In this document: in pieces, positions 9,928 through 61,118 of the stretch | How positions within the stretch are numbered: the stretch's first letter is position 1 | How the letters are laid out: every line of letters begins with the position of its first letter | DNA from: Candidatus Aminicenantes bacterium | GTDB taxonomy: Bacteria; Acidobacteriota; Aminicenantia; Aminicenantales; Saccharicenantaceae | Assembly (NCBI GenBank): GCA_963813235.1 | Contig: CAWEYF010000015.1 | Coordinates: 283,003-347,002, forward strand | Length of the DNA: 64,000 bases | Direction: 5' to 3' | Translations under genes and position numbers: made by a program | Notes under the pieces: model-generated | Databases searched by the model: none | Seen by the model: only the letters and a program-made list of their open reading frames with translations | Told to the model about the DNA's origin: nothing

Positions 9928-9951
9928 ACCGGAGAGCCCGGGAGACGAGCC

Positions 9952-12900
9952 ATGAACCTGACAGAAGTCTGCGTCAAGAAGCCGGTCCTGGCCTGGATGC
10001 TCATGGCGGCCACCATCGTCTTCGGACTCGTGGCGGCTACGCGCATCGGCATCAGCCAGTTCCCCGACGTCGACTTCCCGACGATCTCGGTCTCCGTGGT
10101 CTGGGAGGGGGCGGCTCCCGAGGTCATCGAGAACGACATCGTCGAGACGCTCGAAGAGGCCCTGGTCCAGATCGAAGGCCTCCGGACGATCACCTCGAGC
10201 TCGCGCATGGGCTCGGCCAACATCACCATCGAGCTCGACCTCTCCCGGAACGTCGACCTCGCCCTCCAGGACGTCCAGACGAAAGTCTCCCAGGCCGCCC
10301 GCCACCTGCCCCGGGACATCGATCCTCCCGTCATCTCCAAGTCCAACCCCGAGGACCAGCCCATCCTGATGGTCTCGATGGGCGGCCCATTCCCGCCCCG
10401 CGTCGTCAGCGATTACGTCCAGTACGGTCTGAAGGAGAAGCTCCAGACCATCCCGGGCGTCGGCGAGATCTCGATGATGGGCGTCCAGAACCGCAACATC
10501 CGGGTCTGGCTTGACGCCGCCCAGCTCGACGAGAAGGGCCTGACCGTCAACGACGTCATCCTGGCCCTCCAGCGCGAGCACGTCGAACTCCCCGCCGGCC
10601 GCCTCGAGACCCCCGGCCGGGAAGTCAATGTCCGGGTCCTCGGCGAGGCCGTGGACCTCGAAACGCTCCGCCACATCGTCATCCGGGAGATCGGCGGGAG
10701 TCCCATCTATCTCAGCGACGTGGCCCTCGTCGAGGACGGGTTCGAGGACGTCCGGCGGATGGCCCGCATCAACGGCACGCCCGCCCAGGGCATCGGCATC
10801 AAGAAACAGCGCGGCGCCAACGCCGTCGCCGTGGCCAAGGCGGCCAAGGCGGCCATGGCCGAATACCAGAAGACCCTGCCCGAAGGCATGGACGTCAGCA
10901 TCGATCTTCGACTCGACGACGTTCATCGAGGATTCGGTCCAGGAGATCCAGCTCGAGCTCTTCCTGTCGGTCATCCTGACGGCCCTCGTCTGCTGGATGT
11001 TCCTGGGATCGCTTCTCGAGCACGCTGAACGTCATCCTGGCCATCCCGATGTCCCTGATGGGGACGATCGCCATCATCTATTTCCTCGGGTTCACCTTCA
11101 ACACCTTCACCCTGCTCGGCCTGGCCCTGGCCGTGGGCATCGTCGTCGACGACGCCATCATGGTCATGGAAAACATCTTCCGCCACCGGGAGGGCGGCAA
11201 GGGCCTCGTCGCGGCCGCCCTGGAGGGAACGCGCGAGATCGCCTTCGCGGCCCTGGCCGCGACGCTGGCCGTCGTCGCCATCTTCGTCCCGGTCGTTTTC
11301 ATCAAGGGCATCATCGGCCAGTTCTTCCTCCAATTCGGCATCACCCTCTGCCTCGCCGTGCTTCTCTCCTACGTCGAGGCGGTCACGCTGGCCCCGGCCC
11401 GCTGTTCCCAGTTCCTGAAGACGACGAGAGAAGGCCGGACCCGCCTCGGGCGCGTCGTCGACGACAGCTTCCGCTGGCTCGAGCGGAAGTACGCCGTCGT
11501 CCTCCGCCGGAGCCTCAAGCGGCCAGGTCTCATCCTCGTCGGGGCGCTCCTTCTGTTCGCGGCCGCCTTGGCCGTCTTTATGACGATGCGCGCCGAGTTC
11601 GTCCCGTCCCAGGACCTGAGCCGGCTTATCGATCCGGATGCAGACGGCCGTCGGCTCCGATCTGACGGAGACCGATAAGCTCATCCAGAAGGCCGAGGAC
11701 ATCGTCGTCAAGCGGCCCGAGGTCACCCAGCTCTACGGCTTCATCGGCGGGTTCAGCGGCGGCGTCAACCAAGGCAACCTGTTCGTGACGATCGTCCCAC
11801 CCAAGGAAAGGAAGCTCAGCCAGGCCGAGCTGTCGGCCGTTCTCCGGCGCGAGCTCAACGCCATCCCCGGGGCTGCGGGCCGTCCTCCAGGACCTCTCCC
11901 AGCAGGGCTTCACGGCCCAGCGCGGGTTCCCGATCGAGTTCTCGGTCCGCGGCTCGAACTGGGACCAACTCGTCGCGGAGAGCCAGCGGGTCATGGACGA
12001 AGCTCCGTGAGAGCGGCCTCGTCGTCGACCTCGACACCGATTATCAGCTCGGAATGCCCGAGCTCCGGATCGAACCCGACCGGGCCATGGCCGCGGACAT
12101 CGGCGTTTCGATCGACGACGTGGCCACGACGATCAACGCGCTTGTCGGCGGCATCCGGGTCGGGAAGTACAGCTCGGGGGGACGCCGCATCGACGTCCGG
12201 CTGAAGCTCATGGCCTCCCAGCGGTCGAGGCCCGAGGACATCAGTCGGCTCCAGGTACGGACGCGCGGAGGCGATCTCGTGCCGTTGTCCTCCCTCGTGA
12301 CGTCGAAAGAGCAGCCGGCCCTCCAGGCCATCACCCGCCGGGACCGGGAGCGGGCCATCACGATCTTTGCGAACGTCGCCCCCGGGCGTTCCCAGAACGA
12401 GGCCATCAAGTACGTCGAGGGCCTGGGTCGGGACATCGCGGTCGGCAACCGCATCGTCCTCGGCGGGGCTAGCGTCGCTTTCCAGGAGTCCATGTGCGAG
12501 CCTTCTCTTCGCCATGTTCCTGGGGATCGCCATCGCCTACATGATCCTGGCCTCGCAGTTCAACTCCTTCAAGGACCCCATCACGATCATCACCATCCTG
12601 CCGCTCTCGGTCGCCGGGGCCGCGTTCGCCCTGGTCATGACCGGGCAGAGCCTGAACATCTTCAGCATGATCGGCCTCCTGCTCCTGATGGGGATCGTCA
12701 AGAAGAACTCCATCATCCTCGTCGACTACGCCAACGCCTTCAAGGCTCAGGGGTTCAGTCCCCGGGAATCGATGGAGAAGGCCGGGCCCATCCGGCTGAG
12801 GCCCATCCTCATGACGGCCACGGCGACACTGATGGCGGCCATCCCGCCGGCCCTGGGGCTCGGCTCGGGATCGGAGATCCGGACCCCGATGGCCATCGCG

Positions 12901-13020
12901 GTTATCGGCGGGCTGGTCCTGTCGACGGCCCTTAGCCTGGTCGTCGTCCCGGCGTTCTACGTCATCGCCGAAAAGGCGGGCGCCAAGCGCAAGAAGGATT
13001 CGGGGATAGCCCCCCGTTAG
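9952..13020 (+). pseudogene. RND (AcrB/HAE1-type) efflux permease, full length (3069 nt) but with at least 6 frame changes
   Basis: Fragments in ORFs 9952.., 10628.., 11049.., 11638.., 12054.. and 12367..13020 tile one AcrB-like protein (MNLTEVCVKKPVLAWML...; GIVVDDAIMVMENIFRH; KKNSIILVDYAN). Frame switches traced at about 10900, 11012, 11626, 11870, 12003 and 12495. Confidence 0.9.
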
Positions 13021-16884: not shown

Positions 16885-18207
16885 TCAACGCATTCGGGAG
16901 AGCATGTCCCGGAACATGGAGCCCTTCATCATCTTCCGCATTTCCGCGTACTGCTTGAGGAGCTGGTTGACCTCGTGGACCGGACGGCCGCTGCCCCTTG
17001 GCGATGCGCAGGCGCCGGCTCCCGTTGAGGATCTTCGGGTCCTCCCGTTCCGCGGGGGTCATGGAGCTGAGGATGGCCTCGAAATGGAGGACCTTGCGGT
17101 CGTCGACCTGGACCTTGGAAAGCCCCTTGAGCATCCCCGCCTTGGGGAGCATGCCGAGGATATTGGATAGGGACCCCATCTTCTTCATCTGACCGAGCTG
17201 TTTCCGGAAGTCCTCCAGGGTGAACTCCTGGCGCCGCAGTTTGCGGGCCGTCTCCTCGGCCTCTTCGAGATCGGCCTTCTCCTCGGCTTTCTCTATGAGG
17301 CTGAGGATGTCGCCCATGCCCAGGATGCGGGAGGCCATCCGGTCGGGGTGGAAGACCTCGAGCTTGTCGAACTTCTCGCCGACGCCGGCGAACTTGACCG
17401 GCTTCCCGGTGACGGAGACGATGGACAGGGCCGCCCCGCCCCTGGCGTCGCCGTCGAGCTTGGTCAGGATGACCGAGGTGATGCCGATCCTCTCCCCGAA
17501 CGCCTTGGCGCTCTTGACGGCATCCTGGCCTGTCATCGCGTCTCCGACATAGATGACCTCGACGGGGTCAAGGATGTCCCGGACGACCTTTAGCTCGTCC
17601 ATGAGCTCGTCGTCCACGTGGAGCCGGCCGGCCGTGTCGACGATCAGCGGGTCGAACGCCCTGTTCCGGGCGTGGAGAACGAGGTCCTTGAGGGCCTTTT
17701 CGGGGACGGCCATCTGGTCCGCCGTCATCTCGTAGAAAGGCAGGTCGAGCGACAACGCGATTGTCTTGAGCTGTTCCTGTGCGGCCGGCCGCTTGAGGTC
17801 GAAGGAGACCAGCAACGGGTTCCTGCCGATGCCCCGGACCCATCGGGCCAGCTTGCCGCAGGTCGTCGTCTTGCCGCTTCCCTGGAGCCCGACGAGCATG
17901 AATATGGACGGGGGCGCCGACGCAAAGGTCAGGGGCTTGTCGGTCCCTCCCAGGATGGCGGCGAGCTCGTCCCGAACGATCTTGATGACCTGCTGGGCGG
18001 GGCTCAGGCTCGAGAGAACCTCCTCCCCCAGGGCCTTCTCCCTGATCCTGGCCTCGAAGTCCCGGACGACCTTGTAGTTGACGTCCGCCTCGAGGAAGGC
18101 CAGTCGGATCATCTTCAGGGCCTCGGCCATGTTCTTTTCGGTGACCTTCCCTTCCCCCGGAGGAACTTCATCATCTTCTCGAGGCGGCCGGAAAGCTGGT
18201 CGAACAT
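16885..18207 (-). pseudogene. ffh: signal recognition particle protein Ffh, two single-base frame changes as assembled
   Basis: N-terminus MFDQLSGRLEKMMKFLRGKG (ATG 18207) is out of frame with VTEKNMAEALKMIRLAFLEADVNY (one A missing in GGGAAAGG, near 18145). GTPase motifs GLQGSGKTTTCGKLA and DTAGR are present. The M domain ...RRLRIAKG then needs a shift to read SGRPVHEVNQLLKQYAEMRKMMKGSMFRDMLSRMR* (one extra G in AAGGGG, near 16995). Restored length is 441 codons. Confidence 0.9.
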
Positions 18208-18403
18208 GTTAGAAGGCCCTCGCTTTCGTGTTCATCCTCAACATCTTAGGGCAATACCCGGGAGCCGTCAAATGCCCGCAGAGCGGACGAGACCGGCGAG
18301 CCAAGCAAGACAACCGGGCGATTCGGGTATCCTGTGTGTTTTGCGAGTCTCTCCAACCTTGCCGGCCTCGCCAGTTTCGCTCATTCGTTGTATAATACCG
18401 GCG

Positions 18404-19618: not shown

Positions 19619-20134
<516 letters not shown>

Positions 20135-20140
20135 GGCGCC

Positions 20141-21526
20141 ATGATCTCCAAGATCCTGATCGCCAACCGCGGGGAGATCGCCCTCCGCGTCATCCGCTCG
20201 GCCCGGGAGCTGGGCATCAAGACGGTCGCCGTCTATTCCGAGGCCGACCGCAACTCCCTCCACACCCTCCTCGCCGACGAGAGGGTCTGCATCGGGCCGG
20301 CCAAGGCCTCGGAGAGCTACCTCAACATCCCGAACATCCTGAGCGCGGCCGAGATCACCAAGGCCGACGCCATCCATCCCGGCTACGGCTTCCTGGCCGA
20401 GAACCCCCGCTTCGCCGAGATCTGCGAGACCTCCGGGATCACCTTCATCGGCCCCCCGGCCTCCATCATCCGGCTCATGGGCGACAAGAACAAGGCCCGC
20501 CAGGCCATGAAAAAGGCCGGCCTGCCGGTCATCCCCGGCAGCGACAAGATCCTCGAGGACGTCGCCGAGGCCAAGAAGGTCGCCCAGAAGATCGGCTATC
20601 CCGGTCATCATCAAGGCCGCCGCCGGCGGCGGCGGCAAGGGCATGCGGATCTGCCGCAACGCCGCCACATCTCGAGGAGCAGTTCCCCATCGCCCAGAAC
20701 GAGGCCAGATCGGCCTTCGGCGACCCGTCCCTCTACGTCGAGAAGTACCTCGCCGGTGCCCACCACATCGAGATCCAGATCATCGGGGACAAGAAGGGCA
20801 AGGTCCTCGCCTTCGGCGAGCGGGAATGCTCCGTCCAGCGGAAGTACCAGAAGCTCATCGAGGAGACGCCCTCCCCCTTCGTGGACGAGAAGCTCCGCAA
20901 GAGGATGATGAACGCGGTCGAGGACGCGGCCAACGAGATCGGCTACCAGAGCCTGGGAACGTTCGAGTTCCTGGTCGACGAGAAGAAGCGCTTCTACTTC
21001 ATGGAAGCCAACGCCCGGGTCCAGGTCGAGCATCCGATCACCGAGATCGTCTACGGGATCAACCTGGTCAAGGCCCAGATCCGGGTGGCGGCCGGGGAGA
21101 AGGTCAACTTCCCCTTCGATCTCGAGCTGCGGGGCCACGCCATCGAGTGCCGGATCAACGCCGAGGACCCCGTGACCTTCGTCCCCTCGCCGGGAAGATC
21201 GACTTCCTGGTCCTGCCCGGCGGCGAGGGCATCCGGGTGGATTCGGCGGCCTACGGCGGCTGGCAGATCCCGCCCGATTACGACTCGCTCGTCGCCAAGA
21301 TCATCGCCTTCGCCCCGACGCGTGCCCTGGCCATCAGGAAGATGCAGACCGCCCTGGAGATGACGACGATCGTCGGGATCAAGACCAACATCCCCCTCCA
21401 CCTCCAGATCCTGGCCAACGCGGAGTTCCTCAAGGGCGAACATACGACACCCAGTTCATGGAGCGGTTCCTGGCCAGCAAGAAGACCGCCGCACCTGAAG
21501 CGGCGCTCAGGCCGGCGCGTTCTTGA
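20141..21526 (+). pseudogene. accC: acetyl-CoA carboxylase biotin carboxylase, at least 4 frame changes as assembled
   Basis: [36 protein letters not shown]...; [67 protein letters not shown]. These are spread over three frames, with switches at about 20600, 20663, 21192 and 21445. Restored stop TGA at 21524-21526. Confidence 0.9.
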
Positions 21527-22031
21527 TAGATCGTAACACCGGAATTCCCCGTCGTTGTCCTTGACGACGTTCTCGTTGACCCCGAGGTAGAGCCGGCCCG
21601 GACGGGCATGGCCACGGCCGCTCCCGCCCGATGATAGAACTACCGACGATCTCGTCCCGGATCTCCTCGCCGGTCTTCTCGTCTCCGGACGGCGACCTGG
21701 GCGACCTTTCCCGGCCAGGCGCGCCCAGGTTCCGCTCGGGCACGGGCTGCTGCATCCCCTGGATATCATAGCCCTCCGGCCCGCAGGCGGCGTCGGGATT
21801 GCCCTTCTGGAGGGAGATCTCGCCCTCGCCCTGGAACTGGAGCTCCTCGCCTTCTTGACGTCGAGCCCGAGTCCACCCAGCCGGCGTCCCCGGGACAACG
21901 AGCTCCTTGACCGGCTCGAGTCCTGGGGCGGCAGTCCGGCCGGCCGGCGCAATGCCGCGGCAGGCCGGGAGTAAGAGAACGAGGCCGTGCCGCCGGATCC
22001 GCGGCAAGTATAGGCGAAGCCTGCGGCTCAA
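21507..22031 (-). pseudogene. possible PA-IL (LecA)-like lectin-domain lipoprotein, frame-disrupted
   Basis: Signal/lipobox-like MSRRLRLYLPRIRRHGLVLLLPAC. Fragments in three frames read ...ACGPEGYD...GAPG... and GRLYLGVNENVVKDNDGEF, which resemble the PA-IL-like domain pattern from memory. The 3' end overlaps the accC stop by about 20 nt (convergent). Weak call. Confidence 0.3.
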
Positions 22032-22058
22032 GCCCCGGGCCTGCCGACGCAGTCGGCT

Positions 22059-22863
22059 TCACGGGCTCTCGCCTGACGTTCCCGCGAGGACGGCCAGCAT
22101 GTCCTCGTGGAGCAGGCCGTTCGAGGCGAGGGACCTCCCGGCTGAAGGGATCGACCGGCCCGCCCTTCGAAATCCGACACCCGGCCGCCGGCCTCCTCGA
22201 CGATGAGGGCCCCGGCGGCGACGTCCCAGGGCTTGAGCTTGAGCTCCCAGAAGCCGTCGAACCGGCCGCAGGCGACATAGCAGAGGTCGAGGGCGGCCGA
22301 GCCGCAGCGGCGGATGGCCTGGGCGCGGACGACGAAATCGCCGAATTCCCGGACATTGTTGTTCCGGCTCGTCCGGACGTCGTAGGGAAATCCCGTGGCC
22401 AGGAGCGCCTTCCCGAGGTCGGGGACCGCCGAGACCCGGATCGGCCGCCCGTCGAGCCGGGCCCCGCGTCCCCGGACGGCCTCGAACATCTCGTCCCGGG
22501 TCGGGTCGTAGACGACGCCGAGGACGAGACTCGCCGCGCCGCTCGAGGGCGATGGAGACGCAGAAGACGGGGAAGGTGTGGGCGAAATTCGTGGTCCCGT
22601 CCAGGGGGTCGATGATCCAGCGGAAATCGGAGCTCCCCGCGCGCGGACAGGCCCTCCTCGGCCAGGAAACCGTGGTCCGGGAAGGCGGCCGAAAGCCGCC
22701 GGAAGATCATGTCCTGGGACGGCCGGTCGAAGTCGGTGACGAGGTCGACGGCGCCCTTGTACATGATCTCGCCGCGCTCCGAGCGTTATCCCCGAGGAGC
22801 GCGCCGGCCTCGCGGGCGGCCGGCTTGCGCCGGTCTCGAGATAGGCGGTCTGCGGAGATCCAT
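22059..22863 (-). pseudogene. suhB: inositol monophosphatase-family protein (SuhB-like), multiple frame changes
   Basis: [52 protein letters not shown] (alternate frame); [27 protein letters not shown]. Three frame switches occur within the first 100 nt or so after ATG 22863, and at least two more near the 3' end. Restored stop at 22059-22061. Confidence 0.8.
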
Positions 22864-22956
22864 ACGGGGCCTCATCTTACCAGCTTCGCCCCGGCGGCCA
22901 ACCCGGAACGCCGAAAAACTTTTTTCCTGGCCGGTCCGTAATATACAATAGTTCTT

Positions 22957-24230
22957 ATGTATGCGATTTCGGATAGGAAGGACCCCGACCATGGCCGAGA
23001 AGAAGAGCTTCTTCGGAGGAGACGGAAACGGACGATCATCATCCTGGGCGTCGTCCTCGTCATCGCCCTCGTCATCGTCTTCAACCTGAGGTCCCAACGG
23101 GAAAAGACGGTCAAGGTGACGATCGAGAAGGTCAAAGCGGCCGACCTGACCTCGATCATCTCGGCCTCGGGCGAGGTCAAGCCCAAGAAGAACGTCAACA
23201 TCAGCGCCCACGTCCCCGGCCGGATCATCAAGATCGGGGTCGAGGAGGGCGACGAGGTCAAGGCCGGGGATTTCCTCCTGAAGCTCGACTCGACCCAGTA
23301 CGAGGCCAACGCCGAGGGGAACCGGGCCGCCATCCGGTCCTTCAGGGCCCAGCTCATCCAGGCCGAGGCGCGGCTCCAGAAGGACAAGAACGCCTACGAG
23401 CGGCAGAAGAAGCTCTTCGACGAACAGCTCATCTCCAAGGACCAGCTCGAGACGGCCAAGCCCCAGTTCGACGTCTCGACCGCCCAGGTCCGGGCCATCC
23501 ACTCCCAGATCCAGCAGGCCGAGGCCTCGCTCAAGAGCACCATGGACAACCTCAACAAGACCACCTTCGTCTCGCCGATCGACGGCATGATCACCAGCCT
23601 CCGGGTCGAGGAGGGCGAGGTGGCCATCATCGGCACGATGAACAACCCCGGCACGGTCCTCCTGACCATCGCCGACCTGTCCGTCATGGAGGTCGAGGTC
23701 GAGGTGGACGAGACCGACGTCGTCGGCGTCGAGCTCGGCCAGACGGCCAACGTCCGGGTCGACGCCTATCCCGGAAACGGTCTTCAAGGGCAAGGTGACC
23801 GAGATCGGGAGCTCGGCCCTGCAGAAGACGCTGCCGCGACGACCCAGGAATCCAAGGACTTCAAGGTCGTCGTCACCCTGGACGACCCGTCCCGCAAGCT
23901 CAAGCCCGGCCTGTCCGCCTCGGCGGACATCATCACCGCCGAAAAAAAGGGGGTCCTGGCCGTCCCCATCTCCGCGCTCGTCCTGAGGGACAAGGCCGGT
24001 CGAGCGGGCAAGGACAAGCGAGACGGCCGGGGAAGAGGAAGGCGTCTACGTCGATCGAGAACGGCCGGGTCAAGTTCCAGCCGGTCGTCAAGGGCATCAC
24101 CGGCGGCATGAACATCGAGATCGTCTCCGGGCTCAAGGAAGGCCAGGAGATCGTGACCGGGCCGTACAACGCCCTCCGGGAACTCAAGGACGGGACGCTG
24201 ATCAAGGCCGACGAGAAGAAGGCGAAGTGA
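22957..24230 (+). pseudogene. MacA/HlyD-family periplasmic adaptor, frame-disrupted in the C-terminal third
   Basis: TM anchor TIIILGVVLVIALVIVF. Lipoyl-like domain (SAHVPGRIIKIGVEEGDEVKAGDFLLKLD), coiled coil, then VSPIDGMITSL. The sequence after about 23770 needs at least 3 shifts to read ...TFKGKVTEIGSSALQ...GVYVDRENGRVKFQPVVKGITGGMNIEIVSGLKEGQEIVTGPY...KAK* (stop 24228-24230). ATG 22991 has a better SD but is out of frame. Confidence 0.8.
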
Positions 24231-24231
24231 C

Positions 24232-24936
24232 ATGGCCCCGGAGAACGACGTGGTGATCCGGGTCGAGGACCTCTCGAAGATCTACCAGCTCGAACGGCAG
24301 GAGGTTCGGGCCCTCCACGGCGTCACCTTCACCATCGAGCGCAACGAGTTCGTGGCCATCATGGGGCCGTCCGGGTCCGGGAAATCGACCCTCATGAACC
24401 TCATCGGCTGCCTGGACACGCCGACCGAAGGGACCTACCACCTCAACGGGAAGCTGGTCAGCGCCATGAGCGAGGACGAGCTGGCCCACGTCCGGAACAA
24501 GGAGATCGGTTTCGTCTTCCAGGTCTTCAACCTCCTGGCCCGGGCGACCGCCTTCCGGAACGTCGAGCTGCCCGATGATCTACGCGGGGCTCACGGAAAA
24601 AGGAACGCGAGGACCAGGCCCGCCGGGCCCTCGAGATGGTGGAGATGAAGGACCGCATGCACCACAGCCCGCCCGAGCTGTCGGGCGGCGAGCGCCAGCG
24701 GGTCGCCATCGCCCGGGCCCTGGTCAACGAGCCGTCGCTCCTCCTGGCCGACGAGCCGACCGGGAACCTCGATTCCAAGACCGGGCAGGAGATCCTGAAC
24801 CTGTTCCACAAGATCCACGCCCAGGGCAACACCATCGTCATCGTCACCCACGACCGCGACGTCGCCGACCAGACCCAGCGGATCATCCACCTCCGGGACG
24901 GCGGTGATCGAACGGGAAGAACGGAAAGGAGCCTGA
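24232..24936 (+). pseudogene. MacB/LolD-type ABC transporter ATP-binding protein, at least 2 frame changes
   Basis: Walker [11 protein letters not shown]-loop [11 protein letters not shown], signature [15 protein letters not shown], Walker [14 protein letters not shown]-loop IVIVTHD. Switches at about 24580 and about 24905. No FtsX-type permease gene follows. Confidence 0.85.
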
Positions 24937-24937
24937 C

Positions 24938-25656
24938 ATGTCGTTCTTCAAGCGCATAGAAGGGGTCTTCTTCGGGCCCGGGCCCATGTTCCGGCCCTGG
25001 CCGAGAAGCCGGTCTGGGTCGACGCCCTCGTCGTCCTCCTCGTCCTCCTGGCCGTTTTCTCCGTGGTCGTCGCCCCCTACTCCCAGAAGCGACCAGCTCC
25101 GGATGATGAAGGACAACGCCAAGCTCAAGGAGCGGATGGGCGAGACCCGGTACACGGAGATGATCGCCCGGCTCGAGAGCGCCTCCCCGTCGGGCGTCAT
25201 CACCGAAGGTCGTCGTCCTGGGCCCGGCCATGAGCGTCATCGGGCTCCTCTTCTCGAGCCTCGATCCTCATGATCCTCGGGCCGATTCGTCTCCACCCAG
25301 GGGAAGTACGTCCAGGTCCTGGCGGCCGTCATCCACGCCAATTTCATCGACAAGCTCGCTGGGCAACGCCGTGCGCGCTGTTCCTCATCGCCGACGCGGA
25401 AGTCGGTCATGCAGACCTCGACCAGCCTGGCCCTGCTCTTTCCGAAGATGGAGATCACGCGCCCGCCTACATCGTCCTCGGGCCAGATCGATTTCTTCCA
25501 GATCTGGATGTTCGGCGTCCTGGCCCTCGGCGCTGTCGGCGATCTTCAAGATCGATCTCAAGAAGGCCGCTGTTCATCTCCTACGGCTTCTGGCTCTTGA
25601 AGAGCCTCATCTACATCGCCCTCGGCATCATCGGGCTGTCTAGTACACTGAAGTAG
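24938..25656 (+). pseudogene. Yip1-domain-like polytopic membrane protein, heavily frame-disrupted
   Basis: [18 protein letters not shown]..., VWVDALVVLLVLLAVFSVVVAPY, VLGPAMSVIGLLFSS, QIDFFQIWMFGVLALG and ISYGFWLLKSLIYIALGIIGLSSTLK* are scattered over all three frames. The family call is from memory of Yip1/DUF1282-type proteins. Confidence 0.45.
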
Positions 25657-25660
25657 GAGC

Positions 25661-26789
25661 ATGACATCACGTGGATCAGAACGACATCCGTTCGCGGGCG
25701 AACTCGCCGAGAACCCGTTTTCCACAGGTCCTTGGCCTGATCTGGCGGGAGGAGAGGTCCGGCTTCCTTCGGTCCGGAGGGGCACGGCGGAGAGGGCTTT
25801 CACGTTCGAGAGAGGGGACGTGGCCGTCGATCGGAACTCCTTCGACGAGACCGGCTTCCTGAGGGGATCGCCTGGCGCGCTGGGACTGGTCCGGCCCGCC
25901 GACCTCGCCCGGGGCGAGGCCGTCGCCAACCGGGGACGCGGACGGGCCTGCTGCGGTGCTCTCGTCGAGGATCGGGCGTATTCCCGGCCGCCCGGCTCTG
26001 GGAGCTCGTCGAGACTTTCTCGCATCGGGGAAACCATCCGCAGGTTTTCGACTGGCCGAGGGCGACTTACGACTTCGGCCCGGCGCCGCGGCCCGCGGAA
26101 CCGTCCTGGTCCGCGGCATCCACTCTGCCCGGCCTCATCCTGGAAGGCATCCGCCGGATGGCCAACATCACGGTCATCGAAGCCGCATCTGCCCCGGCCG
26201 CGACGAGAACCTCCAGGCTTCTCGTCCCCAAGGTGGAGAACTTCCATCGCGCTCGCGCCGCACGAACGGTACGTTCTCGTGCCGCGGCCGACGGGTCCGA
26301 GAGCCTCGGCGAGATCGTGCCGCGCCAGCGCGCTGGGCGAGAAGGAGACGAAGAGGGCTCTCTTCGCGCTCCTCGTCCTGGGGATCCTGGGACACGGAAC
26401 GGGAGGACCGGCCGTCGGCCGAATACTCCCTCGGCGACGTGGACCGCCTCTTCGAGGCCTTCAACGACCGGTGCTCCTTCATCTTCAAGTACATCTCGAA
26501 GGAGATCGGCCCGGTGGCCCTCAACGTCATCGAAAAATCCCTGGACGAGATCCGGGGCCGGATCGACCCGGCCTTCCAGGCCTGCGAAGTGAAGCCGGAC
26601 GGGCGGCTCGAGCTCCGGACCCTCCTCCGGAAGAACATGGGCGTCTCGAGCGACGACGGCAAGCGAAGCCTGCTCCGGAGCTTCGACGAGATCCTGGCCG
26701 CGGAGGTCCTGGCGGTCAAGCGGACCCTCGGGAACGGGCACGAATCCGCCCTTGTCAAGGGGCTGGAACGGATGGGGGACCTGCCGTGA
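25661..26789 (+). pseudogene. DUF4388 (PATAN-like) domain protein, heavily frame-disrupted
   Basis: The N-terminus reads GELAENPFPQVLGLIWREERSGFLRV.RGTAERAFTFERGDVAVDRNSF across two frames (the DUF4388 pattern). The C-terminal part is clean from EYSLGDVDRLFEAFNDRCSFIFKYISKEIG... to GLERMGDLP* (stop 26787-26789). Confidence 0.4.
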
Positions 26790-26862
26790 ACAGGAAGCAG
26801 CTCGCCGGCCTGCTCCTCTTCGTCTCGGCCTTCGCGCTCTGGCTTCTGGGGAAAATTGGACT

Positions 26863-27791
26863 CTGAAGCCCGGGACGCTCGTCGTCATCCTGGGGCCCAC
26901 GGGCGTCGGGAAGAGCGGGATCGCTCTCAGCCTGGCCGCGAAGTTCCGCGGGGAGATCATCAACTGCGACTCCATGCAGGTCTACCGGGGCTTCGACATC
27001 GGCACGGACAAGCCCTCGCCGGCCGACCGGAGGGCGGTCCCCCACCATCTCCTCGACGTCGCCGAACCCGCGGGACCAGTTCACGGCCGCCGATTTCGTC
27101 GCCGGCGCCGCTCGAGGCCATGGCCGGCATCCACGCGAGAGGCGGCATTCCCGTTCATCGTCGGAGGCACGGGGCTCTACCTCAAGGCCCTCCTGGACGG
27201 CCTGTTCCCCGGCCCGGGGCGGGACCCTGAGGTCAGGGCGCCGGCTCGAGGCCGAGGCGGCGCGAGACGGGCTCGACGCCCTGTATCGGCAGGCTGGAGA
27301 CGGTCGATCCCGCCTACGCCCTCAAGGTCCGGGAGCCGCGACCGGGTCCGGATCGTCCGAGCCCTCGAGGTCTTCGAAACGACGGGAAAACCCATCTCGG
27401 AGCATTTCCGCGGCACGGAATCCTTCGTCAAAGGCTTGCCGTCAAGTCCGGATCGGCCTGAGCTCGACCGGCCCGAGCTGGTCCGGCGGATCGAAGAACG
27501 GGTCGACCGGATGTTCGCACGGCGGGCTCGTCGAGGAGGTCGAAAGCCTCCTCGCGCAGGGGCGTCCCGGACGGACGCGCCGGCCGTTCCGGGCGCTCGG
27601 ATACAAGTAGGTCCTGAACTTCCTCCGGAACGAGATCGGCCTGGACGAAGCCCGGGACCTGGACCAAGCTCGAGACGCGGCGTTACGCCAAACGCCAGAT
27701 GACCTGGTTCCGGAAGATGGCCGGGATCGCCTGGTTCGCTCCCGAGGAGCAATCGGGCCTTGAGGACCACGTGGGAAAAAACATACAATAG
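26863..27791 (+). pseudogene. miaA: tRNA dimethylallyltransferase, many frame changes, 5' end unresolved
   Basis: LVVILGPTGVGKSGIALSLAAKFRGEIINCDSMQVYRGFDIGTDKPS; PFIVGGTGLYLKALLDG; RIVRALEVFETTGKPIS; TRRYAKRQMTWFRKM. Restored stop TAG at 27789-27791. Confidence 0.8.
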
Positions 27792-27797
27792 AGGACC

Positions 27798-29072
27798 ATG
27801 GAAAAAGCGATCCTCGTCAACCTGGCCACGACCAAGAAGGAAAAGGAAGAGGCCGCGGACTCCATGGACGAGCTCGCCGGGCTGGCCGTCGGCCGCCGGG
27901 GCCCGAGGTCGTCGGGACCGTCTTCCAGAACCGTCCCCGGGCGAGCGTCCGGCGCCTTTCTCGGCAAGGGCAAGGTCGAGGAGGTCCACGAACTGAGGAA
28001 AGAGCTCGGGGCCGATCTCGTCATCTTCGACCACGACCTGACGCCCATCCAGCAGCGGAACCTCGAGGACGAGATCGGGGTCGGGTCATCGACAGGACCC
28101 AGCTCATCCTGGACATCTTCGGCCCAGCGGGCACGGATCGAACGAAGGCAAGCTCCAGGTCGAGATGGCCCAGCTCTCCTATCTCCTCCCCCGCCTCACG
28201 GGCAAGGGCGCCGCCATGTCCCGTCTCGGGGCCGGCATCCGGACGAGGGGGCCCGGGCGAACAGAAGCTCGAGGAAGAACGCCGGAGGATCAACGACCGG
28301 ATCGCGAAGTCCGGAAGGACATCCTGGCCATCCAGAAAAGGCGGGCCGGCCAGCGGGAGAGCCGCCGGAAGAGCCCCGTGCCCACGGTCTCGCTGGTCGG
28401 GTATACGAGCGCCGGGAAATCCACTCTGTTCAACACGCTGACCCGGGAGAGGCGGTACACGTCGCCCAACCTCTTCGCGACCCTCGACCCGCTCCTGCGC
28501 CGTGTCTCCTACCCGGACGGCCTCCATTTCTTCCTCTCGGACACGGTCGGCTTCATCCGGAAGCTCCCGGTCGAGCTGGTGACATCGTTCCAGGCCACCC
28601 TGGACGAGGTCCGCGAGGCCGACGCCGTCTGCCACATCATCGACGCGACGAGCCCTCGCGCCCGGGAACAGGCCGCGGCCGTCGACGGCCGTCCTGGCCC
28701 GGATCGGCGTCAGGGACGTCCCGGTGCTCAGGGTCTTCAACAAGATCGACCTCCTGGCCGGAGGCCGAGCGGGCGGACCTCCTGCGGCGGAACGGGGCCC
28801 CGGAGGCCCGGACCCTCTACCTCTCGGCCCTGACGGGGAAGGGATCGGGGACCTGATGGGAAGGCTCCGGGAGATCCTCTTCCGCGACCACCGCCCCTTC
28901 ACGTTCCGCATCCCGGCGGACCGCGAGGACCTGGCACGTTCCCTGCCCCAGCGCTCCTGATCCTGAAGCGGCGGGAGCAGGAAGGCGCCCTGGAGTTCAA
29001 GGTCATGGCCGACCCGGCGGTCATTGTCGAGCTATCTCCCCTACCTCCGGCAAAGGAGAAGACCCATGGTGA
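27798..29072 (+). pseudogene. hflX: GTPase HflX, many frame changes
   Basis: MEKAILVNL...; [36 protein letters not shown]; G1 motif LVGYTSAGKSTLFNTLT; DTVGFIRKLP; NKIDL. The pieces sit in all three frames. The restored end ...GEDPW* overlaps the next ATG (29066) in ATGGTGA. Confidence 0.85.
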
Positions 29073-30397
29073 AGAAGATCCTCCTCATCGCCGGCTTCGC
29101 CGCCCTGGCCTGGTCCTGCGCCACGTTCAAGCCCCAGCCCCGCTTCGTTCTACGTCGACGACCTCCCCCAGTCCCTCACGACGGCGATGACGCTCGAACA
29201 ACGGATCGCCGCCGAAGAGGCCTGGCAGGACCTGCGGACCGGGAATAACGACAGGGCGGCGAAGGCGTTCGCGAAGCTCGGCCCCGGGAGCCCGGTCTCC
29301 CATCTCGGCCGGGGATTCTTCGCCCTGCAGGCCGCAGGACCTCCCGGCCGCGGAGCAAGGCTTCAAGGAGGCGCTGGGGCGCAATCCCGGCCTCGTCCTG
29401 GCCCACGTAGGGTTGGCCCAGGTCGCCCTGGCCCGGGACGACGAGGATCAGGCCTATTCCCAATACCGGGAGATCCTGAAGCTGGGAGCCGGACCACGCC
29501 TGGGCAAAGCCCCGGTTCGAAGCCCTGCGGGAAAAGAGGACCGAGGAATTCGCGGCCGAGGCCAAGACGGGCCTTCGAGGCCGGGGACACTGAGGCCGGA
29601 AAAGAAGGCCTATCTCAAGGCCCTCTTCTATTCTCCGGAATCCGTCGAGGCCAACCTCAACCTCGCCAGGATCTACAGGAAGGAGAAGAACGTCCCAGAG
29701 CGCCGTCCTCCATTACAAGGCCGCGAGCGCCGGCGCACCCGAAGAATAAGGCCATCCTGAAGGAATACGCCGAGGCCCTGTACGAGGCCGAACAGTACGG
29801 CAGGAGCCTGGACGTCTACGAACGGCTGGCCGAAGCTGGACCCGAAGGACAAGGACGTCCGGGAGCGCATCGAGGGCCTGAAGAACAGGCTCGGGATCTA
29901 TGAGCTTCCGAGCCTGTACAACGACATCCCGGCCTCGGGGGCGATCTCCAGGGAGGATCTGGCCGCCTTGATCGCCGTGAAGTTCAAGGCCGTCCTCGGC
30001 GGAGGAGAGGCGAAGCCGCCCATCCTCGTCGATATCGCCGACGTCCTGGGCCTCTCGATTCATCCTGAAGGTCACGGCCTTGGGCGTCATGGAATCCTAC
30101 GAGAACCACACGTTCCAGCCGAGGAAGATCATCAACCGGGCCGAGCTGGCCGAGACGCTGGTCCGGCTGGTCAATTTCCTGAAGAACAAGGGGTACCGGT
30201 TCGCGCCCCAGATGGCCGCGGACAGGGTCCAGATCTCCGACGTCCCGCCGGACAACTATTACCATGCGCCGATCACCCAGATCGTCGCCTATCAGATCAT
30301 GGATCTGACGCCGCAGAGGACCTTCCGGCCGGACGCGGTCGTCGAGGGCCGGGAGGCCGTCGGGGCCCTGGACGTCATTCTGGGGCTGATGAAATAG
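29066..30397 (+). pseudogene. lipoprotein with TPR repeats and two C-terminal SLH-like domains, frame-disrupted
   Basis: AAGGAG SD, then MVKKILLIAGFAALAWSC (lipobox). TPR-like segments (AYLKALFYSPESVEANLNLARIYRKEKN...). The clean C-terminal frame reads SWASRFILKVTALGVMESYENHTFQPRKIINRAELAETLVRL and ISDVPPDNYYHAPITQIVAYQIMDLTPQRTFRPDAVVEGREAV, which match the S-layer-homology pattern. Confidence 0.55.
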
Positions 30398-30418
30398 GAT
30401 GTAGCGACAGCGATAGAC

Positions 30419-31001
30419 ATGAGCGCGAAATTCTGGAAAGACCTCTGCCTTCCGCCCAACCTCCTGACCCTGTCCCGGGTCCTGCTCATCCCCGTGTTCG
30501 TCTGGATGATGGTTGCCGGCCGGGCGAGAGACGCGTTCCTGGTCTTCCTCCTTGCCGGCCTCACCGACGTCCTCGACGGCCTCGCGGCCAGGCTCTGGCA
30601 CCAGAAATCGAGGCTCGGGCTATGGCTCGATCCGGTCGCCGACAAGCTCCTCCTGACGTCGGCCTTCGTCCTCCTCGGCCTCGTCCGGTGTCAGCCGCCC
30701 CAACGCCATCCCCTTCACGGTGGTCGCCATCGTGATCGGGAGGGATGTCCTGATCGCGTTGGGCGCCCTCATCCTCTTTTGGCTGAGGGGGCAAAAGGCC
30801 TTCTTCCCGACCCTCCTGGGAAAGGTCAGCACCGTCGCCCAGGTCCTGACGGTCCTCGCGGTGCTCGCCCTGAACGCCCGGGGGACGGCGTCCCCTCTCC
30901 TGAGCTGGGCTTACGACGCGACGATCATCGCCACCGTCGCCTCAGGCGTCCAGTACTTCCTCATGTCTCTGCCGCTGCTCGCAGATCGGAAGAGATCGTA
31001 G
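30419..31001 (+). pseudogene. pgsA: CDP-diacylglycerol--glycerol-3-phosphate 3-phosphatidyltransferase (CDP-alcohol phosphatidyltransferase family), one frame change
   Basis: The DGxxARxxxxxxxxGxxxDxxxD motif is present as DVLDGLAARLWHQKSRLGLWLDPVADK. The frame switches at about 30690 into ORF 30720..31001 (VVAIVIGRDVLIALGAL...). Confidence 0.8.
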
Positions 31002-31121
31002 CCAGCAGCGGACCAGCACGCTCATCACCTCATGTTCGCCCGCATGAGGGTGTTCTGCTTGAGGAGAAGAACGCCGCCGGCATCAGAATAATTAGGACGG
31101 TGAACACGATGACCTGTCGCG

Positions 31122-31937: not shown

Positions 31938-31992
31938 TGTGACCGTAAAGATGTCAAGGTTTTGGGCCCTGGCCCGATCGCTTCAGGGAGTG

Positions 31993-32679: not shown

Positions 32680-32856
32680 GATTGCAGCCAGCCTCGACTG
32701 GTCGGTCCGCTCTTGAGCGTTCGGCTGGAGAGCGACGGCGCATAGTGCCGCGAGTAGGATAAGATTCCTGGCCGCCGAGAATGCGTGTCATCATCCCCCG
32801 CCGTTTCGAATGATAGGGCCGCCTCTTCGCCCCGTCAAGCCGCAATGGTTCGGACT

Positions 32857-33777: not shown

Positions 33778-33789
33778 GTCACGCTCCTT

Positions 33790-40597: not shown

Positions 40598-40742
40598 AAA
40601 TCTCCCTCAAAACGTCTTCATGGGGAATTAGGCTCCATTACCTTAGCGGTACGATGCGGATAAGTCAATAGCCTTCAGGGGTGAAAAACAAGGGGGGGGA
40701 AGGCATGTCCCTGCTGATTTTTCGCCCTCCTTTGGCTATACT

Positions 40743-42445: not shown

Positions 42446-42454
42446 CGGCCCGCC

Positions 42455-43576: not shown

Positions 43577-43590
43577 CAAAGGAGGACATC

Positions 43591-56259: not shown

Positions 56260-57710
56260 TCACATGTTCCTGTCGATGAACCCCTTCCGGAGGGTCATCC
56301 AGAGGATCTTGATGTCCAGGGCGAAGGACCAGTTCTGGATGTAATAGAAGTCGTACTCCAGCCGCTTCTCGATCGAGGTGTCCTGCCGCAGGTCGTGGAC
56401 CTGGGCCCAGCCCGTGATGCCGGACTTGACCTTGTGGCGGAGCATGTACTTGGGGATCTTCTCCGGGAACTCCTGGACGAACTCCGGCCGCTCGGGCCGC
56501 GGCCCGATGAGGCTCATCTCCCCCTTGAGGACGTTGACGAGCTGGGGGAACTCGTCGACGCTGTACTTGCGGAGGAACCGCCCGAGCCGGGTGATGCGCG
56601 GATCGGCGGTCCGCACATGACCGGGCCGGTCGCCTTCTCGGCGTCGCAGACCATCGTCCGGAACTTGTGGATGACGAAGCGGCGGCCGTCCAGGCTCACG
56701 CGCTCCTGGTGGTAGAAGACCGGCCCGCGGGAGGTCAGCTTGATCAGGACGGCGACGATCAGGATGAACGGCGCGAGGAGGACGAGGAGCAGGGCCGAGA
56801 CGAGCGATGTCGGTCGCCCGCTTGACGAGTCGGGCGCCCCCTGGAGCGGGACGTCGTCGACGGAGATGACCGGGAATCCGTCGAGGTCCTGGATGTTCGC
56901 CTTGAGGGTCAGGAGCTGGAAGAGGTCGGGGATGAGCCGGACGTGGACGGGATACTTGTCGATGATCTGGAACGTCTCGATGATCTTGGCGTAGTTGTGG
57001 AGGTCCAGGGCGACATAGACCTCGGAAATCCCGTATCCCTCGATGACGGGCCCGAGGTCGGCGAGCGGGCCCGAGGACGGCGATCCCGCCGTCGATCCCG
57101 ATCTCCGTCCCTTCGCGAGCTCGTCGTCCAGGAAGCCCAGGACCCGGAACCCGAGGTCCCGGAAGTCCGAAGAGCTTCTGGGCGACGGTCTTCCCCATGT
57201 CGCCCGCACCCACGATGAGGACGTTGGTCAGGTTCAGCCCGCGGGCGTAGCGGCGCTTCATGAAGAAGTAGATCTGGTTCCGGAAGATGAGGATCACGAA
57301 GATGACGGTCACGAAATAGACGGCCAGAAAGCCGTGGGAGAGCTTGAAGGTCATCCGGTAGATGGGGGCCTGCCCCTGGCTGTAGTTGTAGAGATAGTTC
57401 AGAACGGAGAAGACGACGAGGATGGTCAGGATGCCGTTGATGGAGACGTACAGGAAGTCGTCGATCCGGGCGCGCCGGAGCTTGCTCCTGTAGAAGCCCT
57501 GCAGGTAGAAGATCGCCGAGATGGACGGCCAGGAACAGGGGGAAGACCATGACGTACGACCGGAGCGGAGGGATGCCCCGGGCCGGGTCGACCGGGATGA
57601 TATAGGCGTAGAAGCGGAAGAGGTAGGAATAGAAGTAGGAGACGAGGATGGCCAGGCTGTCGCTGAGGACGAACAGCCCGATCAGCCGGAGCGCGTTTTT
57701 CCCTGATCAT
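56260..57710 (-). pseudogene. polyprenyl-phosphate hexose-1-phosphate transferase (WbaP/EPS priming sugar transferase), about 6 frame changes
   Basis: The C-terminal bacterial sugar transferase domain is clean (DPRITRLGRFLRKYSVDEFPQLVNVLKGEMSLIGPRPERPEF...GWAQV). The N-terminal TM region and the NAD-like linker (NVLIVGAGDMGKTVAQ; VLGFLDDE) are spread over three frames, with switches at about 57695 (A5 run), 57515, 57190, 57115, 57075 and 56625. The ATG at 57710 overlaps the upstream GT4 stop (ATGA). Confidence 0.85.
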
Positions 57711-58831
57711 GCCCGGGCTCCGCGCTCGGCCCAGGCCTTCCGAGGTAGGCGGAGATCTCTCTCCTTGAACACTTTCCCGGGAGAATCTCATGGCGTTCGA
57801 CCTGATCGGTTTCCTTATTACATGCGAAGGTCCGGAATTTGTCAAGCGCGCCCAGGAGGCCGGGGACCGTCGGCTCAGCGAAGAGAAGCCCGGTCTCCCC
57901 GGCGACGACGGTCTCCAGGGAGCCTCCCCGGCCGTAGGCGATGACGGGCGTCCCGCAGGCCTGGGCTTCGAGGGTGGCGATGCCGAAATCCTCCTCGCCG
58001 GGCAGGATGAAAGCGCGGTCGCTCCCCGATAGAGCCGCCGGAGGTCGTCGGCGCTCGACGCTCCCAGGAACTCGACGTTCGACCGGGCGCACCTCCGGAG
58101 CGCCCGGTATTCGGGCCCGGTGCCGACGATCTTCAGCGGGGCGCCCGTCCGGTTGAAGGCGTCGATCGGCCAGGTCGATCCTTTTGTAGGGGACGAGGGC
58201 CGAGACGATGAGGTAGTAGATCTCCGCGGACGCCGGACTCGTCCGGCGGGAAGAACTCCGTGTCCACGGGCGGCGGGATGACGTCGGCCTCACGCCGGTA
58301 GTACTTCTCGATCCGGCGGGCGACGTTGGCCGAGTTGGCGACGAAGTGGTCCACCCGCGCGGCCGAGGTCACGTCCCAGATCCGCAGGCCGTGGATGACG
58401 GGCGGGATGAGCCACCGGGAGAACGGGGACAGCCGGTCCGGCGCGAAATAGGAGAAATACAGGTTCCAGGCGTAGCGCATCGGGGAATGGATGTAGGAGA
58501 CATGGAGGGCGTCGGGCGCGCGGGATGACGCCCTTGGCCACGCAATGGGAGGTCGAGACGACGAGGTCGTATTCCTGGAGGTCGAACATCTCGACGGCCA
58601 GGGGAAGAGCGGCAGGTAGGAGCGATACTTTTTCTCGAGGAACGGCATGCCCTGGAGGAAACTCGTCCGGATGTCGCGCTTCTCGATGTCCGGGTGCTGG
58701 CTGCCCTTGAAGTGGAAGAGCGTGTAGATCGGGGCCTTGGGGAAGATCTCGGCCAGGACCTCCAGGACCTTTTCGCCCCCCCTCTGGCCGGTCAGCCAGT
58801 CGTGGACGAGGGCGACCTTCAAGTTTTCCAT
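57707..58831 (-). pseudogene. GT4-family glycosyltransferase, multiple frame changes
   Basis: MENLKVALVHDWLTGQRGGEKVLEVLAEIFPKAPIYTL (typical GT4 start); HVSYIHSPMRYAWNLY; EDFGIATLEAQACGTPVIAYGRGGSLETV. The pieces are in three frames. The restored C-terminus ...KAWAERGARA* ends in the ATGA at 57707-57710. Confidence 0.8.
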
Positions 58832-58839
58832 CGTCGGTA

Positions 58840-58868
58840 ATTATATCTCAAGAGGAGGCTAGTTTAAA
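58840..58868 (-). promoter_or_regulatory. candidate promoter giving a leaderless transcript for the GT4-wbaP unit
   Basis: On the minus strand: TTTAAA (58868-58863), 17-nt spacer, perfect TATAAT (58845-58840), then only 8 nt to the ATG at 58831. No SD is present. Confidence 0.4.
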
Positions 58869-58978
58869 GCGACACGGCTCGCCCGGAGGGAGAAGCCATC
58901 CCTCCCTCTCAAGACGGGGATTCACGAGAGGCCTGAGACCCCGGCGGAATGCCCTTCGACCCCTAGAACCAGCCCTTT

Positions 58979-59944
58979 TTATTCCGGACATAGGTCTGGG
59001 CAAAATCCTCGTCCGGTTTCGTCAAGTAAAGGATCCCTTCGATGAAGCTGATCAGGCCCATCGCCGCGGGAGCGAGCCCGATCGACCACGGAGAGGATGC
59101 TCTCGACCACGAGGTCGGGAGCGTCCAGGTAGAGGTAGTGAGAACTGCGCTCGGCCAGGACAAACCGGCCGTTCGAGGACTTCCGGCTCAGGGCGAGGCT
59201 CTGTTCAATCCAGAAATCTTGATATTCCTCGGCGACGGCTCCGAACCGGGGATTGGGCGCCCCGGCGGCCATCACCACGAGGGCCGTTTTGCCGAAGGAC
59301 GGGATCTCCGCGGCCAGTCTCGCACTCTCCCCGAACATCTCGCGATGTTCCGATGCGATCATCCGGAAGAACCCCGCCCGGGCCCTCTCCATCGCGTCCG
59401 GCGAACCGGCGCCCGAGTCAGCGATGGCCTGCCATTCCGCGGTCATTCTCTCGGCCATCGCCCCGAGCTCCGCATACTCCTTCTTGAGCAGGAAGGAAAT
59501 GGGCGGAGGGTCGAGCAGGACGATCCCGGCCACGTCTTTCGGGTACTTCGTGGCGAAGACCTGGGCGTTGAGCGCGCCCAGCGAATGGCCGACGATCACG
59601 TACGGTCCGGGGATCGAGGCCGCGTCGAGGAGCGCCTTGAGTTCCTCCGCCTCGCGACCGCTGTGCCGCGGGAGCGGTCCCGTCTCGCTTCGCCCGTATC
59701 CCGCGCGATCGTAGGTACAGACCAGGATGGCTTTGGCGAGGCGGTCCTGCAGAGGCTTCAGCCTATCGATGCCGTCGGTGATTCCCGCGTCGATGACGAC
59801 GACGGGAGAGCCCTCCCCCTCCAGGCGCATCTGAAGGCGATGCGTCCCCACGCTAAAGATCAGGTCGGAGGCGGAGGGTCTTCCCCCTGTGCAGAAAACA
59901 AGGGACAGACCGGCCGCTATGAGCAGGACCTTCTTCGTGTTCAA
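58979..59944 (-). CDS. alpha/beta-hydrolase-fold lipoprotein
   Basis: TTG start at 59944 after AGAGGGAGGA. (M)NTKKVLLIAAGLSLVFC lipobox. Nucleophile elbow VGHSLGA. The upstream 154 codons of listed ORF 58979..60406 overlap the neighbouring GT4 and are not credible. The C-terminal about 40 codons are uncertain (see findings). Confidence 0.7.
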   Translation of the reverse strand: MNTKKVLLIAAGLSLVFCTGGRPSASDLIFSVGTHRLQMRLEGEGSPVVVIDAGITDGIDRLKPLQDRLAKAILVCTYDRAGYGRSETGPLPRHSGREAEELKALLDAASIPGPYVIVGHSLGALNAQVFATKYPKDVAGIVLLDPPPISFLLKKEYAELGAMAERMTAEWQAIADSGAGSPDAMERARAGFFRMIASEHREMFGESARLAAEIPSFGKTALVVMAAGAPNPRFGAVAEEYQDFWIEQSLALSRKSSNGRFVLAERSSHYLYLDAPDLVVESILSVVDRARSRGDGPDQLHRRDPLLDETGRGFCPDLCPE

Positions 59945-59982
59945 TCCTCCCTCTTGATCAATATCCTGGCTGCCCGGGGTTG

Positions 59983-61118
59983 TTAACTCCGGGACTTGGC
60001 GGATATGACCTCGAGATAAAGCGTTTCCGTTTCGCCGATCATGCGCTCGACGGAGAATCGGGGCGGGATCTCGTTCCGGGCAGCCTCGCCGAGACGAGCG
60101 GCGAACGCCTTGTCCTTGAGAAGAAAGAGGATCGACGCGGCCAGCGCACCCGGGTCGCGGGGCCGTACGAGCATCCCGGTCGCCCCGCTCCGGATGACCT
60201 CGCGGACGCCGTCGATATCGGCGGCGATGATGGGCTTCCCCAGGGCGGCGGCCTCGACGAGCACGTAGGGCAGGCCTTCCCAGAGAGACGGCAGGACGAA
60301 CAAATCCGCGGCGGCCAGAATATCCGCGCGTCCTTTCTCTCCCCGAGGAGCGCGGCATGATCCCCCAGCCGCATCGCTTTGAGCTCGGCCCCCAGCCGGT
60401 CGGCAAGCGGTCCGCCTCCTGCGACCACGACCCGCACGGCCGGGATCTCGGCGCGGACGAGAGGAACGGCCCTTAGGAGATAAGTCACGCCCTTCTGCCG
60501 ATGGAGACGGGATACCGCGACGACCAGCGGTCTCCCCACGGCCCCGAGCTCGGCCCGCACCGCGGCGGGATCGCGGAGGCGCTCGGGCGGGATCGGAGCG
60601 ACTCCGTTTCTTATGAGCCGGGCCTTTGGCGGTAAAGCGAGCCTCAGGCGCGCGGCTCGCTCCATGTCCGCTAACGAAACGAAGACGACCGCGTCCGTGG
60701 ACCGGGAAAGCCGGCGCTCGAGGAGGATCGAGGCCCGTTTGGCCGCGGGATTCCGGTAGTGGAGATAGTGGATGCCGTGGATCGTATGGACGACGGCCGG
60801 GGTCCCGGCTCTCCGGGCCGCCAGGCGCCCGTAGAGCCCGGCGATGCCGCCGTGGGTATGGAGGATGTCGACGGCGTTTTCCTGAAGGACCGAGGCGATG
60901 GCTCCGGCCGCCGAGAGGCCGGAGAATTTTCCGAGCCTGATAGGAATGTGACGAATCCCGATCTTTTCGAGCTCGTCGACCAGCGGGCCACCCTCCTCGG
61001 ACGCAACGAGGACCTCGAACTTCTCTTTGTCCAGGCCCCGAGCCAGCGTCAGGACGGTGATCTGCCCCCCGCCGAGGAACGGCCTGTCGATCATTTCGAG
61101 GATCCTGACGCGTGTCAC
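59983..61118 (-). pseudogene. GT4-family glycosyltransferase, one frame change
   Basis: GTG start in a GTGA overlap (61115-61118). MTRVRILEMIDRPFLGGGQITVLTLARGL... reads cleanly to ...LGERKDA. The frame switches at about 60330 to DILAAADLFVLPSLWEGLPYVLVEAAALGKPIIAADIDGVREV...SRS* (stop at 59983). Confidence 0.85.

Follow-up and report, generated by a model that had tools for sequence, protein, structure and literature searches.

Frame breaks from accC to pgsA in an Aminicenantes-like metagenome bin are very probably assembly consensus errors

Residual insertions and deletions (indels) in long-read genomes and metagenomes truncate or split open reading frames (ORFs) and lower CheckM completeness (Cusco et al. 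2021, PMC8103633; proovframe preprint, 10.1101/2021.08.23.457338; Sereika et al. 2022, PMC9262707). Completeness of metagenome-assembled genomes (MAGs) suffers more at low coverage, and a rise from 84.99% to 93.86% after frameshift correction has been reported (Cusco et al. 2021, PMC8103633). PacBio continuous long reads carry 2% substitution, 8% insertion, and 3% deletion errors (proovframe preprint, 10.1101/2021.08.23.457338). Here we consider a 64,000-nucleotide stretch of DNA (hereafter the window; contig C15, positions 283003-347002) in which all eleven consecutive genes from accC to pgsA (window 20141-31001) can be read only by switching frame. The window belongs to a metagenome bin of 2.73 Mb in 29 contigs, with 69.6% completeness and 2.6% contamination. 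Comparison of its sequence with related genomes indicates that the frame breaks are very probably consensus errors of an assembly from noisy, probably long, reads rather than mutations of the organism.

Because G+C content is 60-68%, long spurious ORFs are present in every frame of the window; ORF lists are uninformative by themselves, and homology is therefore needed to follow the genes. Relatives retrieved with the intact accB protein in a scan of genome contigs are MAGs of Candidatus Aminicenantes or Aminicenantales, all of them distant. The main reference was G006, a genome of the same genus that is 95% complete and has an intact, colinear locus. Other comparison genomes were G001 and G007 (same genus, few contigs) and G015 (same order, used for accC only). 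G006 has intact orthologues of accB, accC, a 179-residue secreted protein, suhB, macA, an ATP-binding cassette (ABC) transporter ATPase, a Yip1-domain protein, a DUF4388 protein, miaA, hflX, a 440-residue protein with TPR and S-layer-homology (SLH) domains, and pgsA. Pfam confirms these identities except that of the small secreted protein, which matches no family. G001 and G007 also have full-length ORFs over the locus, and more than 100 intact TPR/SLH homologues of 438-443 residues occur in public data.

That eleven consecutive genes are frame-disrupted, as claimed in an earlier note made from the sequence of this window, is borne out by tblastn and by nucleotide alignment to G006. When the intact G006 orthologues were used as tblastn queries, ten genes were split over two to five frames and accB and DUF4388 were unsplit, yet the nucleotide alignment of DUF4388 contains 26 frame-changing events. 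Window positions 21464-31003 align to G006 as one colinear high-scoring segment pair of 9.6 kb at 85.8% identity. This alignment contains 130 gap events (85 single-base insertions, 22 single-base deletions, ten 2-nucleotide insertions, and a few others), and the window has a net gain of 79 nucleotides over G006 in 9.5 kb; four further events lie in accC. Frame-changing events per gene range from one in pgsA to the 26 of DUF4388, a maximum that, like the 21 of the lipoprotein-like gene, is possibly inflated by alignment noise in diverged stretches. Protein profiles are broken in the same way: Pfam matches to accC are distributed over three frames of stop-to-stop ORFs, with Biotin_carb_N and the start of CPSase_L_D2 in one, CPSase_L_D2 positions 57-208 in another, and Biotin_carb_C positions 12-103 in a third. 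The note had counted at least four switches in accC, and exactly four events are found. Its three same-direction switches in the first 100 nucleotides or so of suhB agree roughly with 5' insertions at 22864, 22847, 22830, and 22822, and its remark that ffh is also broken holds, with that gene cut at both ends (16982-18151, minus strand). Its gene list stands as far as frame breaks are concerned, with a correction of strand for the lipoprotein gene and suhB, which are on the minus strand; the 'lectin-like' label that it gave the lipoprotein is not confirmed by the orthologue, which has no Pfam match.

The indels are unique to this assembly. In a 2.6-kb alignment of hflX and the TPR/SLH gene from four genomes, 23 indel columns are unique to the window (19 insertions and 4 deletions); G006 and G007 have none of their own, and G001 has one in-frame 3-nucleotide deletion. 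The accC alignment contains four insertion columns and one deletion column that only the window shows, versus none for four relatives, with G003 left out of the counts. The locus is otherwise colinear and full length with respect to G006, with gene order kept and with no large deletions or mobile-element insertions.

Decaying genes should show extra substitutions that fall evenly over codon positions, together with nonsense codons. Over hflX and the TPR/SLH gene, the window has 83 unique substitutions (24/18/41 at codon positions 1/2/3) versus 97 in G006 (32/17/48). For accC, unique substitutions number 17 in the window, 33 in G006, 18 in G001, and 21 in G007. Neither alignment has an excess or position-independent substitution load in the window lineage, and third-position bias is kept. 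When the window is projected onto the codons of G006, two in-frame stops occur among 3047 codons and amino-acid identity is 72-90%, so that the absence of premature stops claimed in the earlier note is nearly right. An indel process that, in these alignments, ran without a substitution process is the signature of indel-dominated sequencing error and not of evolution.

Genuine pseudogenisation would make this the locus, or the genome, of a decaying, host-dependent, or dead lineage whose genes were inactivated by small indels. The genes are truly unreadable as deposited and the broken copies are the sole orthologues in the bin, in which no second intact copy of miaA, hflX, suhB, the Yip1 gene, the DUF4388 gene, or the TPR/SLH gene was found; both observations agree with decay. 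If the deposited sequence is taken literally, with no second intact copies, the organism would lack accC, ffh, hflX, miaA, and pgsA, and it counts against decay that accC, ffh, and pgsA are essential. Normal third-position bias, an unexceptional substitution load, and the near absence of stops also speak against it, as do the preserved gene order and the kilobase-scale patches of damage, which ignore gene boundaries and strand and adjoin untouched stretches of 20 kb. Insertions outnumber deletions by about 3.5 to 1 in the window, which is contrary to the deletional bias for which bacterial pseudogenes are known, reportedly a finding of Mira, Ochman and Moran in 2001. Genuine pseudogenes are marked by deletion bias, accumulation of nonsense and missense changes, and gene erosion; the genes here have an insertion bias, no substitution excess, and full length. 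We regard pseudogenisation as highly improbable.

The character of the indels is also informative. Isolated single-base events comprise 64 insertions versus 18 deletions, and genes on both strands are affected. The inserted base is unlike both of its neighbours in 73% of the isolated insertions, and same-base neighbours are fewer than expected (17 observed versus 28 expected, P=0.003). Inserted bases are A in 22 cases, G in 20, C in 14, and T in 8. A is enriched among them (34% of insertions versus 18% A in region 21464-31003), and extension of existing same-base runs is avoided, a combination that might point to a particular platform or polisher. The codon phase of insertions is uniform (23/15/19). 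No recurrent motif was found at the 64 isolated insertions, where the commonest 5-mer context occurs twice and neither a slippery site nor a four-letter word is shared. Since contexts are random, runs are avoided, and no motif recurs, homopolymer-type errors, motif-dependent recoding, and quadruplet decoding are excluded. Homopolymer-type indel errors of the kind seen with nanopore R9, 454, or Ion Torrent were considered and rejected on the neighbour statistics given above. PacBio continuous long reads are marked by more insertions than deletions, by far fewer substitutions than either, and by random context. The error profile judged from the consensus, with its surplus of insertions, random contexts, and no measurable substitution excess, resembles that of such reads more than it does homopolymer-type nanopore errors.

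Two further readings can be weighed with the same data. Biological recoding (programmed +1 frameshifting, quadruplet decoding, transcriptional slippage, or RNA editing) would fit events that are mostly +1 insertions in genes whose encoded peptides are otherwise well conserved. As well as lacking any common motif, the events involve insertion of all four bases, include deletions and 2-4-nucleotide insertions, are not conserved in any relative, and range in density along one contig from none to about 20 per kb; recoding has next to no likelihood. In a collapse of co-occurring strains, both alleles would be kept at polymorphic sites and would appear as one-base insertions where the strains vary, which would also be an artefact, with a cause other than low depth. 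Strain collapse would account for the surplus of insertions, for their contexts outside homopolymers, and for their patchy distribution, and localised heterogeneity within a population can make regions unpolishable (proovframe preprint, 10.1101/2021.08.23.457338). Inserted bases have no preference for standing beside their transition partner (28 observed versus 26.8 expected), third codon positions hold no excess of insertions, and deletions occur too, all of which makes strain collapse unlikely.

Damage of the same type extends over the whole genome in patches. Frames were followed with a seven-state Viterbi tracker that uses a codon-usage log-odds model trained on 907 long ORFs of the genome. 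A junction was called where adjacent coding segments on the same strand are in different frames and both frames are open for at least 10 codons over the join. At the accC-pgsA locus, sites known from alignment are recovered by the tracker, which finds 36 junctions in the window genes versus 1, at a gene boundary, in the orthologous 9.8 kb of G006; frame breaks are thus far above chance. It finds no junctions in G001 and G007 over hflX and the TPR/SLH gene, or in four relatives over accC. Elsewhere in the window, Pfam profiles independently bear out junctions that the tracker calls in the AcrB-type transporter, ffh, CCP_MauG, and glycosyltransferase genes (Table 1). The whole genome yields 940 junctions (3.4 per 10 kb), a count to be read with an undercount in dense patches, where close indels merge, and with possible false calls of up to roughly 1 per 10 kb. 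Junctions occur on every large contig and about 75% of them are insertion-like. In 5-kb bins, the variance-to-mean ratio is 4.07, 231 of 533 bins are empty, and autocorrelation fades within about 3-8 kb. The accC-pgsA locus is among the three densest patches, and C15:305,000-315,000 (window 22-32 kb) makes up two of the four densest 5-kb bins. Its flanks are clean: accB is intact immediately upstream (19619-20131), and no junction occurs downstream over window 31-54 kb. The earlier note is right that systematic single-base errors are present; they are not restricted to the stretch that it described, being patchy genome-wide, with clean stretches of more than 20 kb adjoining.

These observations support the preference of the earlier note for consensus errors over pseudogenisation: the indels are unique to the assembly, substitutions are not in excess, stops are almost absent, insertions dominate in random contexts, and the patches are genome-wide. 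The most economical explanation is that a population of low abundance was assembled from noisy reads, probably long ones. Where local read depth was low, or where polishing failed, random single-base indels would be left behind at a rate of up to about 1 per 100 bases, and neighbouring stretches with good coverage would be clean, with consensus quality tracking depth or polishing at the scale of read length. Window 20.6-30.7 kb would be one of the worst patches, and in the living cell its genes should be whole and should function. We infer from this pattern both the platform and the cause, whether insufficient depth or unsuccessful polishing. The high contiguity (29 contigs) and low completeness (69.6%) of the bin fit a noisy long-read origin. 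Bins of the same genus with 70-500 contigs (G002, G004-G006) are mostly 92-95% complete, with G002 (84%) as the exception. Members of the genus with few contigs (8-20; G001, G003, and G007) have completeness of 61-84%. This suggests that other contiguous MAGs of the genus share the indel problem, yet G001 and G007 are intact at the accC-pgsA locus. So explained, the frame breaks are an artefact of an already well-described kind and not a biological feature.

Several points weigh against consensus error. The attribution to long, PacBio-like reads is drawn from contig count and error profile, and two in-frame stops persist after frame projection. The correlation of bad patches with G+C content is weak (rho 0.16), and high G+C was rejected as their cause on that value. 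Indel placement rests on relatives at 84-90% identity, with no conspecific sequence found elsewhere. An exact-product look-up with intact accB gave no identical protein in another assembly, a 29-mer that is invariant among four genus members had no match in metagenome contigs, and the best match to the frame-projected TPR/SLH protein in a homologue search had only 87% identity. The indels might instead be real in the DNA of the population, either because a lineage, or relic extracellular DNA, was sampled just after small insertions had arisen in a burst of mutagenesis, or because the organism tolerates them through an undescribed correction step at the RNA or ribosome level. Such a reading would need about 100 motif-less insertions per 10 kb without accompanying substitutions and is very improbable. 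Coordinates of the disrupted genes are collected in Table 1.

Table 1. Coordinates of frame-disrupted features in the window
Feature	Position	Strand	Observations
Error-dense patch	20597..30689		About 10.1 kb from first to last frame-changing indel; about 100-125 small indels, mostly single-base insertions; alignments to G006, G001, G007, and G015
accC (biotin carboxylase)	20141..21493	+	Four events: +1 near 20597, +1 near 20668, -1 near 21184, +2 near 21443; five-genome alignment
Small secreted or lipoprotein-like gene	21507..22066	-	tblastn pieces in three minus-strand frames; 21 frame-changing gap events versus G006; orthologue without Pfam family
suhB (inositol monophosphatase family)	22059..22865	-	11 frame-changing events; G006 orthologue matches PF00459
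MacA/HlyD-type membrane-fusion adaptor	22961..24230	+	7 insertion events; tblastn and alignment
ABC transporter ATPase	24232..24936	+	3 single-base insertions: 24570, 24586, 24902
Yip1-domain membrane protein	24938..25658	+	13 frame-changing events
DUF4388 protein	25653..26789	+	About 26 frame-changing events
miaA (tRNA isopentenyltransferase)	26832..27791	+	14 frame-changing events; one in-frame stop after projection
hflX (GTPase)	27798..29072	+	14 frame-changing events; all indels window-unique in four-genome alignment
TPR plus S-layer-homology protein (440 residues in relatives)	29066..30397	+	9 single-base insertions
pgsA (CDP-alcohol phosphatidyltransferase)	30419..31001	+	One single-base insertion near 30683
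AcrB-type resistance-nodulation-division (RND) transporter	9949..12996	+	At least 5 frame pieces; Pfam ACR_tran 3-317, 362-559, 565-648, 699-861, 864-1020 in successive frame segments
ffh (SRP54)	16900..18210	-	Frame junctions near 16981 and 18151; Pfam-confirmed
Sugar transferase and GT4 glycosyltransferase genes	56263..61130	-	About 10 frame junctions; Bac_transf and Glycos_transf_1 profiles split over frame segments
Di-haem cytochrome c peroxidase (CCP_MauG)	53809-54883	+	Single isolated frameshift at about 54322; profile 3-110 in one frame, 112-148 in the next

Breaks in the AcrB-type transporter and in the glycosyltransferase genes toward the end of the window are the same artefact in other patches. 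Lone errors also occur in otherwise clean regions, as is shown by the CCP_MauG gene, which is split by one isolated frameshift. Rfam and tRNA scans of the window for structured RNAs with indels gave no RNA genes. Several neighbouring features were recorded alongside. The upstream part of the window (1-5700) encodes a MobA-like NTP transferase, XdhC, a 2Fe-2S subunit, and a molybdopterin-binding dehydrogenase subunit, as in a cluster of xanthine or aldehyde dehydrogenase type. On the 31100-43600 side, a clean block at 33.8-43.6 kb has GT4 glycosyltransferases, an ABC exporter, and a MacAB-like ATPase with an HlyD adaptor and an FtsX permease. An intact ORF of 2907 residues (44150-52873, plus strand) lies in an error-free stretch. 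Its domains are a weak, below-cutoff GT2-like match, a glucoamylase-like domain, a GH94 supersandwich, and a GH94 catalytic domain, and its predicted architecture is that of a cyclic beta-1,2-glucan synthase (Cgs/NdvB type), an enzyme that we did not expect in an Aminicenantes-like genome. In G006, accC is separated from the gene for the small lipoprotein by two additional genes on the minus strand (L010 3863-7641), for a 645-residue beta-lactamase-like membrane protein and a 614-residue protein, and both are absent from the window (21493-21507). G001 appears to lack them as well, with an accC match that is colinear to 1800 of 1860 query bases. The two genes, present in G006 and missing from the window, seem to mark genuine structural variation within the genus.

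The significance of the frame breaks is practical only: they are an annotation hazard and a warning flag for other findings in this genome. In this species-representative genome, automated annotation will break up, fuse, or call as pseudogenes hundreds of genes, among them essential ones such as accC, ffh, hflX, miaA, and pgsA, and the completeness estimate of 69.6% is depressed. Pangenome analyses, metabolic reconstructions, or inferences of 'gene loss' for this Aminicenantes-like lineage would be wrong. Frame-dependent oddities reported from this genome should be weighed against its error background.

Among known systems, the closest likeness is to indel errors in long-read assemblies, in which conserved genes are also split genome-wide, damage is worse where coverage or polishing is poor, and completeness is depressed despite contiguity; in both cases, the errors can be corrected by frameshift-aware protein alignment. 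Homopolymer deletions are typical of nanopore consensus sequences, unlike the random-context insertions found here, which are closer to the profile of PacBio continuous long reads. Pseudogene decay in reductive genomes, such as those of Mycobacterium leprae and recent endosymbionts, likewise produces many consecutive frameshifted genes, but it is accompanied by a bias toward deletions, accumulating nonsense and missense changes, loss of genes, and mobile elements; the accC-pgsA locus shows none of these. Programmed ribosomal frameshifting, as in prfB and dnaX, also requires a +1 or -1 shift for the protein to be read. Sites of that kind occur singly, depend on a motif, and are conserved in relatives, whereas the locus described here has about 100 sites that are motif-less and of which none is conserved.

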